DNA of 64,000 nucleotides from an uncultured Desulfohalobiaceae bacterium (GTDB taxonomy: Bacteria > Desulfobacterota > Desulfovibrionia > Desulfovibrionales > CAZUBS01), in assembly GCA_964594925.1 (NCBI GenBank), contig CAZQOG010000002.1, forward strand, positions 389-64,388, given 5' to 3'. A program made the position numbers and the translations under genes. Below, one piece after another: positions 10,637 to 57,068 of this stretch. Within the stretch, counting starts at the first letter, position 1. Each line of letters opens with the position of its first letter. A model generated the notes under the pieces. The model worked only from the letters and a program-made list of their open reading frames with translations, did no database searches and had not been told where the DNA came from.

Positions 10637-10652
10637 GGGGAAACCTTGTTCA

Positions 10653-10885
10653 GTTCGAAGTTCGAAGTCGGAAGTTGGAAGGGAAGACCTCTAACACAAT
10701 GCCGCAACGTTGAGGAGATACTGTTGATTCAGTCCTTTCTTGTTCATCCTTTTCAACGGTTGTTTAAAAACCAAGTTTCAGGCCGAAAGTTCGAAGAAAT
10801 GAGAAAGTGCGTGCATTTTTCTTCATTGCTTAAAATGTCGTTTTGTCTTTCCCTTCCAGCTTCGAACTTCCGACTTCGAACTTTT
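10653..10885. repeat. inverted pair of GAAG-heptad arrays bracketing a 162-nt AT-rich spacer
   Basis: Left arm 10653-10686: gttcgaa gttcgaa gtcggaa gttggaa gggaag. Right arm 10849-10885 is the reverse-complement type (ttccagc ttcgaac ttccgac ttcgaac) and abuts the gabT stop (10888). Arms match at roughly 29 of 34 positions by unit-wise comparison. Confidence 0.85.
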
Positions 10886-12186: not shown

Positions 12187-12207
12187 TATTTCAACTCCTC
12201 ACGTTTT

Positions 12208-12350
12208 CAAGTTCGAAGCAGCCGGCTGCGCCGGAGTTCGAAAGGGGAAGTTCGAAGTCGGAAGGAAAAGGCAGAACGGCGAGAACGCAAAATTCTTATA
12301 CTTTTTCTCCCTTCGAACTTCCGACTTCGAACTTCGAACTTCGAACTTTT
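12208..12350. repeat. inverted GAAG-heptad arrays between the thiolase and gabT genes
   Basis: Right arm 12309-12350 (ccttcgaac ttccgac ttcgaac ttcgaac ttcgaac tttt) includes the thiolase stop codon (12349-12351). Left arm 12245-12265 (ggggaag ttcgaag tcggaag g) contains an 18-nt perfect complement (gaagttcgaagtcggaag). There is also a small palindrome gcagccggctgc at 12218-12229. Confidence 0.85.
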
Positions 12351-20799: not shown

Positions 20800-21957
20800 A
20801 TGTCTGATGTTTGGAAGAAACGTGTGGAAGATGTGCACGCCCGGTATGAAGCTGGTGAGCTCTCCCGCCGCGATTTTTTGCGGTTCATGGTCATAGCGGG
20901 CACGGCAGCGGGACTGGCAGGCGGCCCCTTCGGCCTGCTTGGTTCGGCCCAGGCAGCCGACTCCATCCGTTTCGACGGCTGGGGCGGGACAACATCCGAG
21001 GCCTTTCGCAAGTATGCCTTCGATCCCTTCACCAAGGCCACGGGCATCGAGGTCATCGACGGGGAGTTCGGGGACATGGACTCCTATCTGACCCGGGTCA
21101 AGGCCTCCTTTCCCCCGGGGGGCGAGTACAACCTGGCCCACCTGTCCGGGGTGTTCGACTACGCCCGCTACGTGGGTCTGGGCTTCAACTCCGCCCTGGA
21201 CGAGAGCGAGATACCCAACCTGTCCCTGGTCATGCAGGCCATGGTCAAGCCCTACTACGCCATTACTCCGGGATCCCTGTCCGCTGTGCCCTACGACCTC
21301 GGGCAGACCGGCATTGCCTACAACACCAAGCATATCTCAAAGGAAAAGGCTGAAAAACTTGGGGCCGGGATCCTGTTCGAGGAGACCCTGAAGGACAAGA
21401 TCGGCTCCTGGACGGACTGGCGCACCAACATCTGGTACGCAGCCCTGTACACCGGCCAGAACCCCAACGACATCAGCGATTTGGACAAGGTCTGGAAGGC
21501 CCTGCGCAAGCAGCGCGACCTGATCAAGAAGTACTGGGGATCGGGCGCCGAGCTGATGAGCCTGCTGGCCAATGAGGAGATCTACGCCACACCGGCCTGG
21601 TCCGGGCGGGTCTACCATCTGCAGGAGCAGGGACACCCCATCGGGTACCTGGCGCCGGAAGGCACCTACTCCTGGCAGGAGTGCATCTTCGTCATCAAGG
21701 GCACCGACCTGGACACGGCCCACAAGCTGCTCAACTTCATGCTCGAGCCAGAGGCGGCCATTGCCGTGGCCGATGCCCAGAAGTATCCGCCCAGCCTGGA
21801 CCCGTCCAAGGTGGACATGCCTGAATCGGTCTCCAAGCTGCCGGCCTTCGATCCCACCGGGCAGCTCAAGGGGTACCTGTTCGGCGTGCCGGACTACTGG
21901 AACGGGCACCAGCTGGAGTGGGCGGAGCAGTGGGACCGCATCATGGCCGGCGCTTAG
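20800..21957 (+). CDS. periplasmic substrate-binding protein, PotD/PotF family, with twin-arginine signal
   Basis: 385-aa ORF behind AAGGAGGA. SRRDFLRFMVIAGTAAGLAGGPFGLLGSAQA is a Tat-type signal. Mature part is SBP_bac_1/PotD-like in length. Confidence 0.8.
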   Translation: MSDVWKKRVEDVHARYEAGELSRRDFLRFMVIAGTAAGLAGGPFGLLGSAQAADSIRFDGWGGTTSEAFRKYAFDPFTKATGIEVIDGEFGDMDSYLTRVKASFPPGGEYNLAHLSGVFDYARYVGLGFNSALDESEIPNLSLVMQAMVKPYYAITPGSLSAVPYDLGQTGIAYNTKHISKEKAEKLGAGILFEETLKDKIGSWTDWRTNIWYAALYTGQNPNDISDLDKVWKALRKQRDLIKKYWGSGAELMSLLANEEIYATPAWSGRVYHLQEQGHPIGYLAPEGTYSWQECIFVIKGTDLDTAHKLLNFMLEPEAAIAVADAQKYPPSLDPSKVDMPESVSKLPAFDPTGQLKGYLFGVPDYWNGHQLEWAEQWDRIMAGA

Positions 21958-22081
21958 CAATCAGTTGAAAAATCCCGGCTGGCTTCGTTGCTGCGGCCAG
22001 GTCAAACCCTCACGTATATGGTATACGCTTCGGACTTGACCAGGCCTTGCGCCTCGCCAGCCAGGTTTTTGAACTGATTGC
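21957..22081. repeat. 125-nt near-perfect long palindrome (extended hairpin) starting in the stop codon of the binding-protein gene
   Basis: Nested complementary blocks: gcaatcagttgaaaaa/tttttgaactgattgc (15 of 16), cccggctggc/gccagccagg (9 of 10), ggccaggtcaa/ttgaccaggcc (10 of 11). Apical stem cgtata-tgg-tatacg (6 of 6). Confidence 0.85.
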
Positions 22082-22099
22082 AATCCGCCCTGCGGGCGA

Positions 22100-22220
22100 G
22101 TTCGAAGTTCGAAGCTCGAAGCTGAGAGCAAGGGAAAGAAAAGAAGCTGAAGCAAGGCTTCAGCAGTATTGCCTCCGGCCGGCCGGTCCTATCGGTCCTA
22201 CAGTGACGGCCGGCCGGAGG
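22100..22220. repeat. GAAG heptads followed by two further hairpins in the same intergenic region
   Basis: Heptads gttcgaa gttcgaa gctcgaa gctgaga (22100-22127). 8-bp stem gctgaagc/gcttcagc (22146-22164). 14-bp GC stem cctccggccggccg/cggccggccggagg (22172-22220) whose loop holds two nonamer-type units, gtcctatcg gtcctacag. Confidence 0.85.
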
Positions 22221-22273
22221 CTTCACCACAGCGCTGTCCGGCAGCACAGCATGTAACGCGAAGAGGAACACCA

Positions 22274-23392
22274 GTGGCTACCGGTACCAACCAACCCGTT
22301 GTCCAGCTCAAAGGGCTCATGAAGCGCTTCGGCAGGACCCTGGCCGTCGAGAAGATGGACCTGTCCATTGCACAGGGGGAGCTGGTGACGCTGCTCGGCC
22401 CCTCGGGGTGTGGGAAGACGACAATCCTGCGCATGATCGCCGGGTTGGAGAAACCCACCGAAGGCGATATCTACATCAAGGGAAAGTGGGTCAACGACAC
22501 CCCCATCCACAAGCGGAACCTGGGCATGATCTTCCAGAACTACGCCCTGTTCCCGCACAAGACCATCTTCGACAACGTGGCCTTCGGGCTCAAGTACCGC
22601 GATGTCCCAAAAAGTCAGATGAAAGAGAAGGTCTCCAATGCCCTGGAGATGGTCCGGCTGCCCGGCGTGGAGAAACGCTACTCGGCCCAGCTTTCCGGAG
22701 GGCAGCAGCAGCGCATCGCACTGGCCCGGGCCATTGTCATCGAGCCCGACGTGCTGCTCATGGACGAACCCTTGTCCGCCCTGGACGAGAAGCTGCGGGA
22801 GGAGATGCGCATGGAGATCGACAACCTGCAGCAGAAGCTGGGGCTGACCACCATCTTCGTCACCCATGACCAGCGGGAGGCCCTGTCCATGTCCACCAGG
22901 ATCGTGGTCATGAAGGACGGACGCAAGCAGCAGGAAGGCGAGCCCGAGGACGTCTACGACTACCCCTCCAACCGTTTTGTGGCCGACTTCCTGGGCCACT
23001 CCAACTTCTACGAGGCCAGGGTGACCGGCCACACCTCGGACGGGTACACCAAGGTGGTGACCAGGGACGGCCTGGAGTTCGTGACCGAGCACCCGGGGGA
23101 GTGGGTCGAGGGACAGGAGGTGACCCTGGTCATCAGGGCCCAGAAGCTGAACCTGACCAGCCCCGGCCAGGAGGAGGAGCTCGAGTCCACAGCAGTGAAC
23201 CTCTACAACGGCACCATTTACGACCGCAGCTACATGGGGGGCGAGACCAGCTATTTCGTCGAGCTGGAAGGAGGGGTCAGGCTGCACGCCATCAGCATGG
23301 TCAGGCGCCGGCCCCACCGGATCGGCGACCCGGTGGTCCTGCACGTCCCGCCCCGGCACTGCGGGCTCCTGGCCCGGGAGGAAGCCCCGTAG
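22274..23392 (+). CDS. ABC transporter ATP-binding protein, PotA type
   Basis: ORF track 22169..23392, trimmed to GTG 22274 (AGAGGA upstream). Walker A GPSGCGKTT, signature LSGGQQQRIALARA, Walker B LLMDEPLSALD. Confidence 0.88.
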   Translation: MATGTNQPVVQLKGLMKRFGRTLAVEKMDLSIAQGELVTLLGPSGCGKTTILRMIAGLEKPTEGDIYIKGKWVNDTPIHKRNLGMIFQNYALFPHKTIFDNVAFGLKYRDVPKSQMKEKVSNALEMVRLPGVEKRYSAQLSGGQQQRIALARAIVIEPDVLLMDEPLSALDEKLREEMRMEIDNLQQKLGLTTIFVTHDQREALSMSTRIVVMKDGRKQQEGEPEDVYDYPSNRFVADFLGHSNFYEARVTGHTSDGYTKVVTRDGLEFVTEHPGEWVEGQEVTLVIRAQKLNLTSPGQEEELESTAVNLYNGTIYDRSYMGGETSYFVELEGGVRLHAISMVRRRPHRIGDPVVLHVPPRHCGLLAREEAP

Positions 23393-26089: not shown

Positions 26090-26119
26090 AGGCCCCGGCA
26101 GAACCACGAGGTGTCCGTC

Positions 26120-27217
26120 ATGACCTTTTCCCTGCCCGCCTACCTCCCCCCCGTCTTTGATGCCGAGCCCCTGCGCAGTGCGCCCACGGCTGTGTTTAAG
26201 CCGGCCCCTGCAGACGGTGTGGCCCCGGACAACTACCACGGCACGTCCATCTTCCCCGAGTATGTCCACCTGCAGCCGGGCCGCTGGGAGCTGATCCGCA
26301 ACTCGCGCATGGACTGCGTCGTGGTGCTGCGGCCGGGGGGCGCTGTGGAGACGGTTGAGTTCAGGAGGCTGCAGAAGGGCGACCAGGTGGCCGTGGGCCG
26401 CACCGAAAGCGGTCAGGACGGAATCCTGGTTCACGACACCGGGTTTGCGGCCCAGGCAGGGGAGGTGGAGAAGTTCGCCTTCCGGACCCGCATCACCCGC
26501 GAGTCCTCATTCTCCATCGACTACGACACCATGTACGATTTGCTGCGCTTCGAGCGGGACAAGGGGCACATCGTCTGGGTGGCGGGGCCGGCCGTGGTCT
26601 TTGACTCTGACGCGCGCAAGGCCTTTGTCCGGCTCATCGAGCAGGGGTTCGTGCACGGCCTGCTGGCGGGCAACGCCCTGGCCGCCCACGACATCGAAGC
26701 GGCCATGTTCCAGACCGCTCTGGGCCAGGGCATCTACCACAAGGTCCCGGCCCGGTTGGGACACTACCACCACCTGGACGCCATCAATGCGGTGCGCCGG
26801 GCCGGCTCCATCCGGGGAGCCGTGGAGCAGGGGCTGATACCGGACGGGGTCATGCGCGCCCTGGAAGAAAAAGGCGTCCCCTCTGTGCTGGCCGGGTCCA
26901 TCCGGGACGACGGCCCCCTGCCGGACGTGATCGGCGATGTGTACCAGGGGCAGGACGCCATGCGCCGGGTGGCCTCACGGGCCACGACCGTCATCACCCT
27001 GGCCACCCAGCTCCACTCCATTGCCACCGGCAACATGACGCCCTCCTACCAGGTCGACGCCGCGGGCCGGGTCAGGCCGGTCTACTTCTTCTGCGTGGAC
27101 ATCTCCGAGTTTGCCGCGGACAAGCTGGCCAACCGCGGCTCCCTGACCGTGCACGCCATCTTGACCAATGTGCAGGATTTCATAGTTACCTGCGCGAGAA
27201 ACCTGACAAACGGCTGA
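26120..27217 (+). CDS. conserved protein with a TIGR00300 (LOR/SDH-associated, archaeal ornithine-cyclodeaminase-like) C-terminal domain; function uncertain
   Basis: ORF track 26111..27217 (GTG); ATG 26120 is likelier. The C-terminal two thirds (LLAGNALAAHDIE...GHYHHLDAINAVRRAGSI...LAGSIRDDGPLPDVI) match my recollection of TIGR00300 proteins. The N-terminal roughly 130 aa do not look like the usual LOR/SDH N-domain. Confidence 0.5.
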   Translation: MTFSLPAYLPPVFDAEPLRSAPTAVFKPAPADGVAPDNYHGTSIFPEYVHLQPGRWELIRNSRMDCVVVLRPGGAVETVEFRRLQKGDQVAVGRTESGQDGILVHDTGFAAQAGEVEKFAFRTRITRESSFSIDYDTMYDLLRFERDKGHIVWVAGPAVVFDSDARKAFVRLIEQGFVHGLLAGNALAAHDIEAAMFQTALGQGIYHKVPARLGHYHHLDAINAVRRAGSIRGAVEQGLIPDGVMRALEEKGVPSVLAGSIRDDGPLPDVIGDVYQGQDAMRRVASRATTVITLATQLHSIATGNMTPSYQVDAAGRVRPVYFFCVDISEFAADKLANRGSLTVHAILTNVQDFIVTCARNLTNG

Positions 27218-27243
27218 GAATCGATTCTCAGCCGTTTGTCAGG
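27202..27243. terminator. 42-bp perfect palindrome overlapping the stop codon (hairpin/terminator candidate)
   Basis: cctgacaaacggctgagaatc|gattctcagccgtttgtcagg has 21+21 nt with no mismatch and centre ATCGAT. The TGA of the upstream gene (27215-27217) lies in the left arm. No U-tract. Confidence 0.5.
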
Positions 27244-27320
27244 AGGTATTGCGGGGCTTGGGAATTGACTCGGGGGGACCCTGATCACGCGTCCAGCGTG
27301 ATGGCGGTTTGTCGGGGGGG

Positions 27321-27416
27321 CTTTTCTTGCTTCGAGCTTTAAGCCTCGAGCCCTATTCTTCTTGCTTCGAGCTTCCAGCTTCCAGCTTCGAGCTTTATTC
27401 TTCTTGTTTCGAGCCA
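27321..27416. repeat. composite GAAG-family heptad region with a higher-order ttcttcttgYttcgagc repeat
   Basis: Read directly: ...ttcttgcttcgagcttt aagcctcgagccct attcttcttgcttcgagcttccagcttccagcttcgagcttt attcttcttgtttcgagcc. Confidence 0.85.
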
Positions 27417-27443
27417 GAGGCGCAGCCGATTCTATTCTTTTTT

Positions 27444-31716: not shown

Positions 31717-31820
31717 AAGTTCGAAGTCAGAAGCTCGAAGTCGGAAGGACGATGGGTTGCCTCAGGCTTGCAAGGCCTTGTAACAGTGCCTTTCCTTCGA
31801 AATTCGAACTTCCGACTTCC
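31717..31820. repeat. inverted GAAG-heptad arrays between rpmI and rplT
   Basis: Arm 31717-31748: aagttcgaag tcagaag ctcgaag tcggaag g. Arm 31794-31820: ccttcgaaattcgaacttccgacttcc. On the mRNA (minus) strand the second arm is followed by CTTTTTT and then the AAGGAGA SD of rplT. A CGCGCG-agcag-CGCGCG hairpin sits at 31825-31841. Confidence 0.85.
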
Positions 31821-31841
31821 ACCTCGCGCGAGCAGCGCGCG

Positions 31842-34673: not shown

Positions 34674-34748
34674 TGGTAGGCGCGAGGAGATTTGAACTCC
34701 TGACCCCTTGCGCGTCAAGCAAGTGCTCTCCCCCTGAGCTACGCGCCT
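34674..34748 (-). tRNA. tRNA-Val (anticodon GAC), CCA encoded
   Basis: Hand-folded cloverleaf: AGGCGCG-TA-GCTC-AGGGGGA-GAGC-A-CTTGC-TTGACGC-GCAAG-GGGTC-AGGAG-TTCAAAT-CTCCT-CGCGCCT-A-CCA, 75 nt. Confidence 0.93.
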
Positions 34749-43766: not shown

Positions 43767-43990
43767 AAAGCTCGAAGTTGGAAGTTCGAAGGGAAGACAG
43801 AAGAAAAAAGGAAACCTTCAGTTTGAGGCGTAGCTGGATCATGTGCCTTGCTTCCAGCTTCGAACTTCGAATTATTCTTCCAACCGCAACCTCTCAAACT
43901 TGCTCTGCCAATCAACCAATCAACCACGCAACAAATAAACCTGCCTTTCCCTTCGAGCTTCCGACTTCCAGCTTCCAGCTTCCAGCTTTC
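43767..43990. repeat. three GAAG-heptad arrays plus a CCAATCAA tandem between pncA and malQ
   Basis: 43767-43796: aaagctcgaag ttggaag ttcgaag ggaag. 43846-43881 and 43944-43990 are the opposite-orientation type (…ttccgac ttccagc ttccagc ttccagc tttc). The last array ends in the malQ stop codon (43989-43991). ccaatcaa ccaatcaa at 43908-43923. Confidence 0.85.
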
Positions 43991-56933: not shown

Positions 56934-57068
56934 AATAGGACTGATAGGACCGATAGGACGGATAGGACCGATAGGACCGGCGAAAATCACTTTCGTCCTA
57001 TCGTCCCATAGTCCTATGGGGGGGGTCCTATCCGTCCTATCCGTCCTATCGGTCCTATCCGTCCTACC
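56934..57068. repeat. inverted arrays of a 9-nt tandem repeat (GATAGGACC)
   Basis: 56934-56978: aataggact gataggacc gataggacg gataggacc gataggacc. A 14-nt spacer follows, then 56995-57068: gtcctatcg ... gtcctatcc gtcctatcc gtcctatcg gtcctatcc gtcctacc, interrupted by cccatag-tc-ctatggg. Confidence 0.9.

Follow-up and report, generated by a model that had tools for sequence, protein, structure and literature searches.

A 125-nt palindrome in an ABC-transporter operon of an uncultured Desulfohalobiaceae bacterium as a probable copy of a hairpin-shaped, MITE/REPIN-like repeat

The operon considered here encodes, in this order, two permeases, the substrate-binding protein and the ATPase of an ABC transporter; it is a conserved housekeeping operon, syntenic in relatives, and lies within a stretch of 64 kb (64,000 nt) that was analysed as a whole and is referred to as the window. 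Between the binding-protein gene (20800..21957, + strand, 385 aa) and the ATPase gene (22274..23392, + strand, with GAAGAGGAA before a GTG start at 22274 that agrees with the start called in relatives) there is an oversized spacer of 316 nt, which opens with a 125-nt palindrome and leaves 192 nt from the end of that element to the ATPase start. An initial sequence-only reading had assigned the two genes in this way, which is borne out by domain matches in near-identical relatives (SBP_bac_8 and ABC_tran/TOBE_2 in Pfam, the binding-protein assignment being based on PF13416/PF13343 matches in relatives). It had also proposed two origins for the palindrome, one as a stabilising hairpin by which more binding protein is made than products of the downstream genes, the other as a small MITE or foldback insertion. 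The evidence points to the second: the palindrome is probably a copy of a non-coding, non-autonomous, hairpin-shaped, MITE/REPIN-like repeat that is co-transcribed in the ABC-transporter operon, and the inserted element accounts for the oversized spacer.

The element (21957..22081, + strand) is an imperfect palindrome built of four nested blocks, which were recounted exactly as first described: 15/16 positions are complementary in the outermost pair (21957-21972/22066-22081), 9/10 in the second (21974-21983/22056-22065), 10/11 in the third (21995-22005/22036-22046) and 6/6 in the innermost (22013-22018/22022-22027). The TGG apical loop, the single asymmetric internal loop and the start within a stop codon, all three previously reported, likewise stood: the binding-protein gene ends in TAG (21955-21957), the last base of which is the first G of the element. 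From the outside inwards, and all on the + strand, the left outer arm (GCAATCAGTTGAAAAA T CCCGGCTGGC, 21957..21983, its terminal 16 nt A+T-rich) faces the right outer arm (GCCAGCCAGG TTTTTGAACTGATTGC, 22056..22081), the internal loop places TTCGTTGCTGC (11 nt, 21984..21994) opposite TTGCGCCTC (9 nt, 22047..22055), and the inner stem (GGCCAGGTCAA / TTGACCAGGCC, 21995..22046) encloses the apical hairpin CGTATA-TGG-TATACG (22013-22027). Both strands of the internal loop lie within motifs conserved in the family described below, in which the present copy is called locus 1 (on the basis of sequence, fold and a covariance model, R1). The outermost 16-nt blocks, with both arms pooled, contain 31% G+C versus 65% in the window, the whole element 54%. 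Every frame contains a stop codon, within the element or adjacent to it, or else amounts to a short ORF without a real protein relative. The element also lies outside the heptad and nonamer families, as had correctly been stated.

As RNA, the element folds into a single rod of -60.8 kcal/mol (the free-energy check proposed earlier), compared to -34.9 +/- 3.4 kcal/mol in 200 dinucleotide shuffles (z = -7.5, 0/200 as good), and as DNA it reaches -34 kcal/mol (z = -6.5). Because raw MFE fails to single out the element in a G+C-rich genome (130-nt windows average -50 kcal/mol at the 65% G+C of the window, which makes the raw value unexceptional), sliding-window MFE was replaced by a palindrome-specific scan. 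In this gapped scan of the whole window the element ranked third with a score of 19.0, against a maximum of 13-14.5 in three whole-window shuffles, and was preceded by a hairpin of the nonamer array and by a 42-bp palindrome at 27202-27243.

The position within an operon, with the binding-protein gene on one side and the ATPase gene on the other, the high stability of the RNA rod and the UUUUU after an inner G+C stem would suit a regulatory hairpin of the host with an in-place origin, i.e. an immobile intercistronic mRNA stabiliser or attenuator selected because it raises binding-protein output over that of the ATPase. The inner G+C-rich stem (GGCUGGC.../...GCCAGCC) is followed by UUUUUG and belongs to a hairpin of ~90 nt, in which an A-run further upstream is the pairing partner of the U-run; a U-tract is absent from the further copies found at locus 2 and in L151 (see below). 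Against such a device, the element was not flagged by the terminator scan, and the sister-clade operons do without it while owning a different conserved hairpin. A reading as a sigma-70 promoter was rejected. An intrinsic terminator, for which a compact G+C-rich hairpin with a U-tract directly after it would be expected, is not favoured either, although the inner stem with its T-run resembles one. A second intercistronic hairpin with a 15-bp G+C clamp (22171-22221) is conserved also in relatives that lack the element, and since these already own it, the 125-mer is an add-on rather than the original device of the operon. Termini that differ in composition from the host genome, a block of 127 nt that is present or missing as one piece, and homologous copies found both at a locus unrelated to this one and in a second genus further make an in-place regulatory origin very improbable. 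The element is not a locally evolved hairpin.

Comparison of the spacer among relatives, which had been recommended at the outset, separates filled sites (the window, L143 and L144) from empty ones (L124, L145 and L146). In L143/L144, which come from independent ENA and Logan assemblies, the element is 96.8% identical (4 substitutions), whereas in the three sister-clade assemblies it is missing as a clean 127-nt gap between well-aligned flanks. The empty alleles read GCG TAA C|CGCCCTGCGG or GCA TGA T|CGCCCTGCGG, so the stop codon of the binding-protein gene is TAA or TGA in relatives without the element and TAG in the window, and the empty site directly precedes a small hairpin, CGCCC-TGC-GGGCG. 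Library or assembly errors can produce long palindromes, and integron attC sites are imperfect palindromes of a length similar to that of the element, so that it might be a chimera with palindromic ends joined in error or a structured site of known type. An attC site would be expected to lie within a cassette array beside an integron integrase. However, the element recurs with its 4 substitutions in independent assemblies and has a paralogue in five further contigs, while the RYYYAAC/GTTRRRY boxes of attC are absent from its ends (GCAATCAG / CTGATTGC; a GTTGAAA lies 8 nt inside, on the wrong arm for attC) and it is located in a housekeeping operon conserved in all relatives, the 64 kb examined containing neither an integrase nor a transposase. 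The attC candidate was rejected on its ends, and artefact and known structured site are together extremely improbable.

Whether the filled or the empty state came first is less straightforward. On binding-protein gene DNA, the window and L143 share 96% identity, L124 groups with the pair L145 and L146 at 93%, and the two clades are ~90% identical to each other. Since the filled and empty clades are sisters, the choice between gain and loss depends on distant outgroups (77-80% identity), and the element is missing from both of their spacers, which cannot be aligned. The element could be ancestral at locus 1, the sister clade having lost it through a precise deletion stimulated by the palindrome; its family membership would be unaffected and only the polarity reversed. 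One event is enough either way between sister clades, clean internal deletion of such an element is seen in the window, and an insertion is not marked by a target-site duplication: the flanks at locus 1 (..GCT TA|G...C|AAT CCGCC, compared to TAA C / TGA T in the empty alleles) contain none, and TA, TAA, GCAAT and several other candidates tried by hand do not fit both empty alleles. Target-site duplication was judged from two junction pairs (locus 1 and locus 2), of which the second has no direct repeat either (GAAA|CCTG...CAGG|CGGT). Ancestry followed by loss is nevertheless decidedly unlikely, considering the absence from both outgroup spacers, the lack of flanking direct repeats that could give TAA-C or TGA-T by slippage, the different product, TAGCAATCC, expected if the GCAAT repeats had served as deletion endpoints, and the requirement that a precise loss also recreate an in-frame stop.

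A diverged paralogue of the element, present in all relatives, lies 5 kb downstream (locus 2). The full-length version is found at L143:7214-7344 and in orthologues in L147-L150, with lengths of 131-155 nt and a fold of -94 kcal/mol. Its core is 80% identical to the locus-1 core of the window (shuffle mean 55%) and its outer arms ~60%. In the outer helix, 10/28 pairs have changed on both sides between the two loci and 87.9% of cells are paired; for the whole 52-pair structure this is 87.3%, versus 29-41% in partner-slid controls, and one compensated C-G to U-A change separates locus-2 orthologues. The window itself retains a remnant, the perfect 42-bp palindrome mentioned above (27202..27243, + strand, 45 bits with R1), the core of which was lost by an 89-nt deletion between 12-bp direct repeats (AGAATCGATTCT). 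The reverse order of events, with a 42-bp palindrome existing first and the core entering it along with a 9-12 bp duplication, was rejected, because the full element exists at locus 2 in both clades and the state of the window is therefore a derived deletion. The left arm at locus 2 supplies the last three codons and the TGA stop of an ArgZ-like/ornithine-cyclodeaminase-like gene (26111-27217). As to the multiple dispersed copies per genome expected of a MITE, the 64 kb of the window contain an intact copy and a remnant, and L143 has two copies within 11 kb.

The family extends beyond these genomes. R1, which fixes the orientation of locus 1 as + (115.9 bits on + versus 39.9 on -), also matches L151:5595-5724 with 61 bits (E about 1e-13), in a Pseudodesulfovibrio, from another family of Desulfovibrionales, where three additional core-only matches lie in an array (159-nt x 3.9) upstream of tRNA-Arg. 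This array is antisense to the tRNA (61 bits on - versus 29 on +), and the site has its empty counterpart in the related L152, the tRNA-Arg leader of which is ~25 nt long and lacks the element. Contig L151 had first been reached independently by a translated search with one stop-free frame (match P0252); the two other matches of that search (of three) are genuine repeat proteins and irrelevant, P0250 having FG-GAP-like repeats. In 0.95 Mb of unrelated bacterial DNA, R1 gave no match at E<=1. The proposal of a small MITE or foldback insertion is thus supported by an insertion/deletion difference among close relatives, a paralogue at a second locus and a relative in another Desulfovibrionales family.

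Across locus 1, locus 2 and the Pseudodesulfovibrio copies (i.e. three independent loci), two unpaired motifs are conserved, CTKCGTTGCYGCGG on the 5' side of the internal loop and GCGCCTYGC on the 3' side, while the apical CGTAT..ATACG is invariant in every member and the inner stem covaries. Conservation peaks in the core and is lowest at the termini, and the outer arms diverge yet stay complementary. The copies are extragenic, apart from overlaps confined to the last codons of a gene, and the two copies of the window lineage each lie at a gene's 3' end and point in the sense direction. Part of this would also be expected if the hairpins were domesticated, i.e. functional RNA or DNA structures selected at gene ends (as a protein-binding site, or as a 3'-end or processing signal) rather than selfish. 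The motifs and the apical loop region are shared between Desulfohalobiaceae-like and Pseudodesulfovibrio copies, compensated changes maintain the pairing, the window-lineage copies share orientation and position, and the left 88 nt of locus 2 differ at only 2 positions between clades (compared to ~90% identity for binding-protein gene DNA), with far more differences in the intergenic DNA just 3' of the element. However, a recognition site for a mobilising enzyme predicts the same features, the Pseudodesulfovibrio array is antisense to its tRNA, the conserved core has been deleted at locus 2 in the organism of the window, locus 1 is dispensable in the sister clade, and Rfam contains no match, all of which makes domestication unlikely.

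A scan of a 596-Gb genome collection with the 16-mer GCAATCAGTTSAAAAA, a pattern much too short for a collection of that size, gave at least 120 matches; the 120 listed were all single chance matches, none extending past 19 nt. A metagenome scan with the locus-1 arm pattern (the variable part of the family) gave 18 matches of pattern length only, the best of which (L139) is coding. Scans of viral contigs with two core patterns found nothing, or one chance match in a phage gene, and blastn against plasmids and phages found no real match. Rfam gave nothing relevant, whether searched at the gathering threshold or with E-value limits of 10 for the window spacer and 0.1 for L143 and L151. Within the 64-kb window there are no transposase or integrase genes, and no RAYT (Y1/HUH) gene either. 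This small family of hairpin repeats, from sulfate-reducing bacteria, is apparently undescribed.

In the preferred reading, that of a MITE/REPIN-like repeat, the element would have been gained in the common ancestor of the organism of the window and its 96%-identical relative, replacing the last base of the stop codon and leaving both genes undamaged. Mobilisation would occur in trans, with the folded asymmetric core as the feature that the enzyme recognises; given the lack of a visible target-site duplication, the form recognised is probably single-stranded DNA. Once in place, the element would be transcribed within the permease-permease-binding protein-ATPase mRNA, where its rod of -61 kcal/mol abuts the stop codon. 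By blocking 3'-exonucleases or serving as a site of processing, the rod may favour the binding-protein over the ATPase segment; ribosomes that terminate there would open the A+U-rich outer stem, leaving the right arm exposed. Such an mRNA-stabilising or processing effect, predicted from the fold and its position, is plausible, but it would be a side effect of the insertion and would not explain why the sequence exists.

Small palindromic repeats are common in well-studied bacteria and barely catalogued in sulfate reducers. The present family offers a natural series, from an empty site, through a filled site that rewrites a stop codon and a copy that encodes the last three residues of a protein, to a core-deleted copy (which leaves a perfect palindrome) and copies arrayed in tandem within a tRNA leader. 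Annotators are warned that such a hairpin is not to be read as an evolved regulator. It is probably a genomic hitch-hiker of a familiar kind, which may in addition affect the processing of the operon mRNA. A bolder and rather doubtful extension is that the family represents an undescribed, Desulfovibrionales-wide class of elements, with a recognised core (the two unpaired motifs plus the CGTAT..ATACG hairpin) clamped by complementary arms that evolve freely. Such elements would insert at gene ends next to small hairpins without target duplication, via folded single-stranded DNA and a dedicated enzyme of HUH/Y1 or other type, or would instead be a domesticated, protein-bound RNA module of gene ends. 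If the conserved asymmetric core is indeed the recognition site of a specific enzyme, it would provide a handle on the duplication-free movement of hairpin repeats.

Among known repeat classes, classical MITEs are defined by target-site duplications and by conserved termini that match a parent IS; bacterial examples are Correia/NEMIS, RUP and Chunjie of Geobacter. The element resembles MITEs in being short (125 nt) and non-coding, in its terminal inverted repeats (15/16 complementary termini), and in having filled and empty sites among relatives, both at locus 1 and in the tRNA-Arg leader (L151 versus L152). With the classical bacterial MITEs it further shares an intergenic, co-transcribed position that leaves the operon unbroken, as well as a stop codon or C-terminal residues supplied by the repeat, as at locus 2. 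It differs in that neither junction pair has a target-site duplication and no parent IS was found, and for a MITE mobilised by a transposase it is atypical that the core is the best-conserved part and the termini the least. With respect to the predicted effect on mRNA, the REP/BIME hairpin in the malE-malF spacer of E. coli was shown experimentally to protect the upstream mRNA from 3'-5' decay. It is likewise a repeat-derived hairpin 3' of an ABC-transporter binding-protein gene, although the gene order differs (the ATPase gene is next here) and the analogy is functional, with protection being a prediction in the present case.

REPINs are extragenic, non-coding REP doublets of ~100 nt that form one long hairpin maintained by compensatory changes (Bertels & Rainey 2011, PMC3116915); no target-site duplication is described for them, they occur in tandem or higher-order clusters and undergo excision and deletion events, and their recognition, in the form of folded single-stranded DNA, has been attributed to an enzyme with its gene elsewhere (PMC3116915). 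The long hairpin, the compensatory changes, the extragenic sites and the clusters (the array of L151) are shared by the present family, as are the lack of a target-site duplication and the occurrence of deletions. A REPIN, however, consists of a conserved REP 16- to 25-mer present twice in inverted orientation, with a less conserved spacer between the two (PMC3116915), whereas in the present family the centre is conserved best and the two arm motifs are not inverted copies of each other. REP sequences also carry a GTAG (or CGTC) tag (PMC3733652), and in this the family differs, as it has no consistent GTAG/CGTC tag: GTAG occurs only by chance, at the junction in L143 (GCG TAG), and is absent from the window (GCT TAG) and from locus 2.

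Almost equal in size is ERIC (IRU, RU-1) of enterobacteria, a 127-bp, A+T-rich element with TA termini and a target-site duplication, the transcript of which alters the stability of flanking mRNA segments in Yersinia in a ribosome- and orientation-dependent manner (Delihas 2008, PMC2229807). The element differs from ERIC in its host (Desulfovibrionales, which at phylum level are a different group), its G+C content (54%) and the absence of TA ends or a clean duplication, and comparison by eye found no sequence similarity. It does share with ERIC a nearly equal length, an imperfect palindrome over its full length, a long stem-loop transcript, a location in transcribed intergenic regions of operons, and filled and empty sites between strains. 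YPAL (RU-2) of Yersinia, which is 168 bp long, has target-site duplications of 3-26 bp, inserts at or beside dyad symmetry and was recently mobile, judging from filled and empty sites (PMC2229807). Target-site duplication is not evident for the present element and the sequences are unrelated, yet both have internal inverted repeats, are not A+T-rich overall and have no TA termini, and the empty site at locus 1 adjoins a small hairpin. The family is, in its general kind, kin to MITEs, ERIC/YPAL elements and REPINs.

The 125-nt interval at 21957-22081 (GCAATCAGTTGAAAAATCCCGGCTGGCTTCGTTGCTGCGGCCAGGTCAAACCCTCACGTATATGGTATACGCTTCGGACTTGACCAGGCCTTGCGCCTCGCCAGCCAGGTTTTTGAACTGATTGC), which the sequence-only reading had described as one long rod of four nested complementary blocks, is confirmed as a palindrome: a recount reproduces the 15/16, 9/10, 10/11 and 6/6 matches, TGG forms the apical loop, and in the asymmetric internal loop TTCGTTGCTGC faces TTGCGCCTC. 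As claimed, the element starts within a stop codon, its first G being the third base of the TAG (21955-21957) that closes the ORF at 20800-21957. A fold-energy calculation on the RNA gives a single rod of -60.8 kcal/mol (z = -7.5, with none of 200 dinucleotide shuffles as good), and the DNA fold has z = -6.5. The raw energy is unremarkable in a window of 65% G+C, in which 130-nt windows average -50 kcal/mol; in a gapped palindrome scan of the 64 kb the element ranks third, with a score of 19.0 versus a shuffle maximum of 13-14.5. The strongest hairpin of the window is formed by inverted arrays of the nonamer TAGGACCGA at 56935-57066 (43-nt arms, 95% complementary, about -86 kcal/mol in a 130-nt frame).

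The ORF upstream encodes a periplasmic substrate-binding protein of 385 aa (PF13416/PF13343 in relatives at 75-100% identity), while the gene downstream, with a GTG start at 22274 preceded by GAAGAGGAA, encodes an ABC ATPase (ABC_tran and TOBE_2 in relatives), the spacer between them being 316 nt. The gene order (i.e. two permeases, binding protein, ATPase, then a proline-racemase-like and an amidohydrolase gene) is syntenic in all relatives compared, and the names on near-identical proteins indicate a Desulfohalobiaceae-like lineage. In L143, a relative at 97% identity, the ATPase gene (L143:2286-3404) is split into two ORF calls (ABC_tran, 164 aa; TOBE_2, 195 aa), owing either to a sequencing error or to a frameshift or stop in that assembly; the gene is intact in the window and in contig L149 (372 aa).

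The same spacer holds a second hairpin at 22171-22221 (also in L124:1418-1490, L145 and L143), the 15-bp G+C clamp of which (GCCTCCGGCCGGCCG / CGGCCGGCCGGAGGC) is shared by all close relatives, whereas its loop carries a variable number of nonamer repeats of the GGTCCTATC type (about 2 in the window, fewer in L143, 5-6 in L124 and L145). The ENA contig L149 begins at this hairpin (L149:1-90), a hint that the repeat-rich spacer is a frequent breakpoint of assemblies. Heptad repeats (GTTCGAA / CTTCGAG type) also fill many intergenic spacers (10652-10883, 12199-12348, 22098-22125, 27320-27420, 31732-31824 and 43768-43974), often as inverted arrays that would form long hairpins. Since the corresponding spacers of L121, a relative at 83% identity, measure only 18 and 54 bp, the heptad arrays are lineage-specific expansions.

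Comparison of the window with the orthologous spacers of six other assemblies shows that the 125-nt element is an insertion/deletion polymorphism. It is present at the same position, 96.8% identical with 4 substitutions, in L143 (ENA; binding-protein gene 96.2% identical to that of the window at the DNA level) and in L144 (Logan), which encodes the same protein. It is missing from L124 (..GCG TAA C-CGCCCTGCGG..) and from two NCBI MAGs, L145 and L146 (..GCA TGA T-CGCCCTGCGG..), all with gene DNA about 90% identical, where the empty alleles leave a clean 127-nt gap with flanks that align base for base on either side. The element recurs in independent assemblies with substitutions particular to them, which rules out an assembly artefact. 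Gene identity makes sister clades of the filled pair and the empty trio, so that one event accounts for the pattern. The more distant L121 and L123 (gene DNA 77-80% identical) have short unrelated spacers without the element, which weakly favours a gain, these spacers being unalignable with that of the window. No target-site duplication can be drawn at this locus: the filled site reads TA/G...C/AAT CCGCC (slashes at the ends of the element), and TA, TAA and GCAAT each fail to fit both empty alleles. The stop codon was kept across the insertion (TAA or TGA to TAG, the G coming from the element), and the ribosome-binding site of the ATPase gene, at a distance of 190 nt, is unaffected.

The element is not unique to this spacer. 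The suggested blastn of the 125-mer against contigs of relatives returned a second site, L143:7239-7319 (81% identity over element positions 23-104). This match forms the middle of a nearly perfect palindrome of 131 nt (-94 kcal/mol, z = -14) that follows immediately on an ArgZ-like/ornithine-cyclodeaminase-like gene and precedes a convergent MerR gene. An element of 131-155 nt occupies this second locus in every relative that covers it, from both clades (L143, L147, L148, L149 and L150). In the window, only a perfect 42-bp palindrome (21+21, no loop) is left at 27202-27243, sharing sequence with the final codons and TGA of the ArgZ-like gene. Removal from the 131-nt element of the 89 nt that separate its two copies of AGAATCGATTCT, a self-complementary 12-mer, yields exactly this remnant. 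As the full element is found in both clades, the window has the derived state, with the core deleted, as expected when slippage occurs across a hairpin. The left arm of this second element also supplies the final three codons (T-N-G) and the TGA of the preceding gene, whose product varies in its tail among homologues. In the sister clade (L148:2955-2990, L147), about 25 extra nt in the right half, after a duplicated TTGCCA, break the symmetry of the palindrome; the 27-bp outer stem is still perfect.

A third locus came from a translated search, in which one stop-free frame of the element, run against 1.8 billion proteins, matched a 225-aa spurious ORF (P0252, E = 2e-4). Its 372-kb contig, L151, is judged to come from a Pseudodesulfovibrio sp., its UvrC being 92% identical to that of a named MAG. 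At L151:5087-5704, a 159-nt unit is repeated 3.9 times in tandem (97% matches) between a promoter-like TTGACA/TATAGC pair and tRNA-Arg(CCG), and each unit holds one family core. These cores are 70-73% identical to those of the window lineage and keep CTGCGTTGCTGCGG, CGTATTGG-ATACGC and CCTTGCGCCTTGC, with covarying stems. A covariance model of the hairpin family, built from five sequences, detects the last unit at full length (61 bits, E about 1e-13) and, in three further units, the core. In another Pseudodesulfovibrio genome (L152, UvrC 86%), the same promoter and tRNA stand about 25 nt apart without the element (L152:13200-13265), and the tRNA-Arg leader is a second filled/empty pair. The array lies antisense to the tRNA (61 bits on the minus versus 29 on the plus strand), which argues against a need for sense transcription.

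The family conclusions rest on three independent loci. In full-length alignment, the cores of the first two are 80% identical (60/75 versus a shuffle mean of 41.5), against only about 60% for the outer arms. Nevertheless, these arms stay paired: in the 28-pair outer helix, 10 pairs have changed on both sides and 87.9% of cells are paired, while over the whole 52-pair structure the value is 87.3%, falling to 29-41% when partners are slid by 1-3 columns. No column shuffle reached its covariation score, and one compensated C-G to U-A change occurs among orthologous copies of the second locus. The model recovers all copies and the 42-bp remnant, and unrelated bacterial DNA (0.95 Mb) gave no match at E<=1. 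Its scores are strongly strand-biased for each copy (116 versus 40 bits at the first locus); the palindrome is thus directional, its polarity residing in the asymmetric core. A conserved centre combined with fast-evolving yet compensated arms is the unusual trait of the family.

These results show a non-coding palindromic repeat family with presence/absence polymorphism in two hosts. In this family the asymmetric core is conserved, the arms diverge yet stay paired, and the core can be lost by deletion between short repeats. The element is presumably non-autonomous and would have arrived at the stop codon in a forebear common to the L143 lineage and that of the window; no transposase is encoded in the 64-kb window, which holds housekeeping genes. 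The lack of a target duplication, the full-length hairpin and the unpaired conserved positions suggest that a putative mobilising enzyme probably recognises the core as folded single-stranded DNA, in the manner proposed for REPINs and for the ends of IS200/IS605 (PMC3116915). Since consensus scans detected no promoter or terminator between the binding-protein and ATPase genes, the element would have to be co-transcribed with the operon. A rod of -61 kcal/mol from the stop codon onward should block 3'-5' exonucleases and may be a substrate for endonucleases specific for double strands or for A/U. A ribosome that terminates at the TAG would melt the A+U-rich outer stem and leave the right arm exposed, as described for ERIC in Yersinia (PMC2229807). 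Overall, the ratio of binding-protein to ATPase message is predicted to rise; the effect would be at most incremental, because the conserved G+C-clamp hairpin already exists, at the position of 22171-22221, in relatives that lack the element.

As to known families, no Rfam family matches any member at gathering threshold, nor at an E-value of 10 (window spacer) or 0.1 (L143 and L151); the sole match in the window at gathering threshold is an unrelated tRNA gene at 34677-34748 (minus strand). Plasmids and phages gave no similarity to the element, and consensus scans reported no sigma-70 promoter or terminator inside it. The inner G+C stem followed by UUUUU resembles an intrinsic terminator, but this feature is missing from the other members. 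An integron attC site was rejected, as attC boxes are missing from the ends and the element sits in a conserved operon rather than a cassette array. A description of this hairpin family was found neither in Rfam nor in a (non-exhaustive) literature search. The family comes closest to REPINs, ERIC, YPAL and classical MITEs, but it lacks at least one testable defining feature of each. Of the earlier proposal of a small MITE or foldback insertion, the mobility it implies is supported by filled and empty sites and by family copies, whereas the absence of a target duplication and of conserved termini sets the family apart from MITEs, as it does from ERIC and YPAL; from REPINs it differs in having no GTAG/CGTC-tagged inverted REP pair. 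We class it as an apparently undescribed member of the small palindromic interspersed repeats, itself a known kind.
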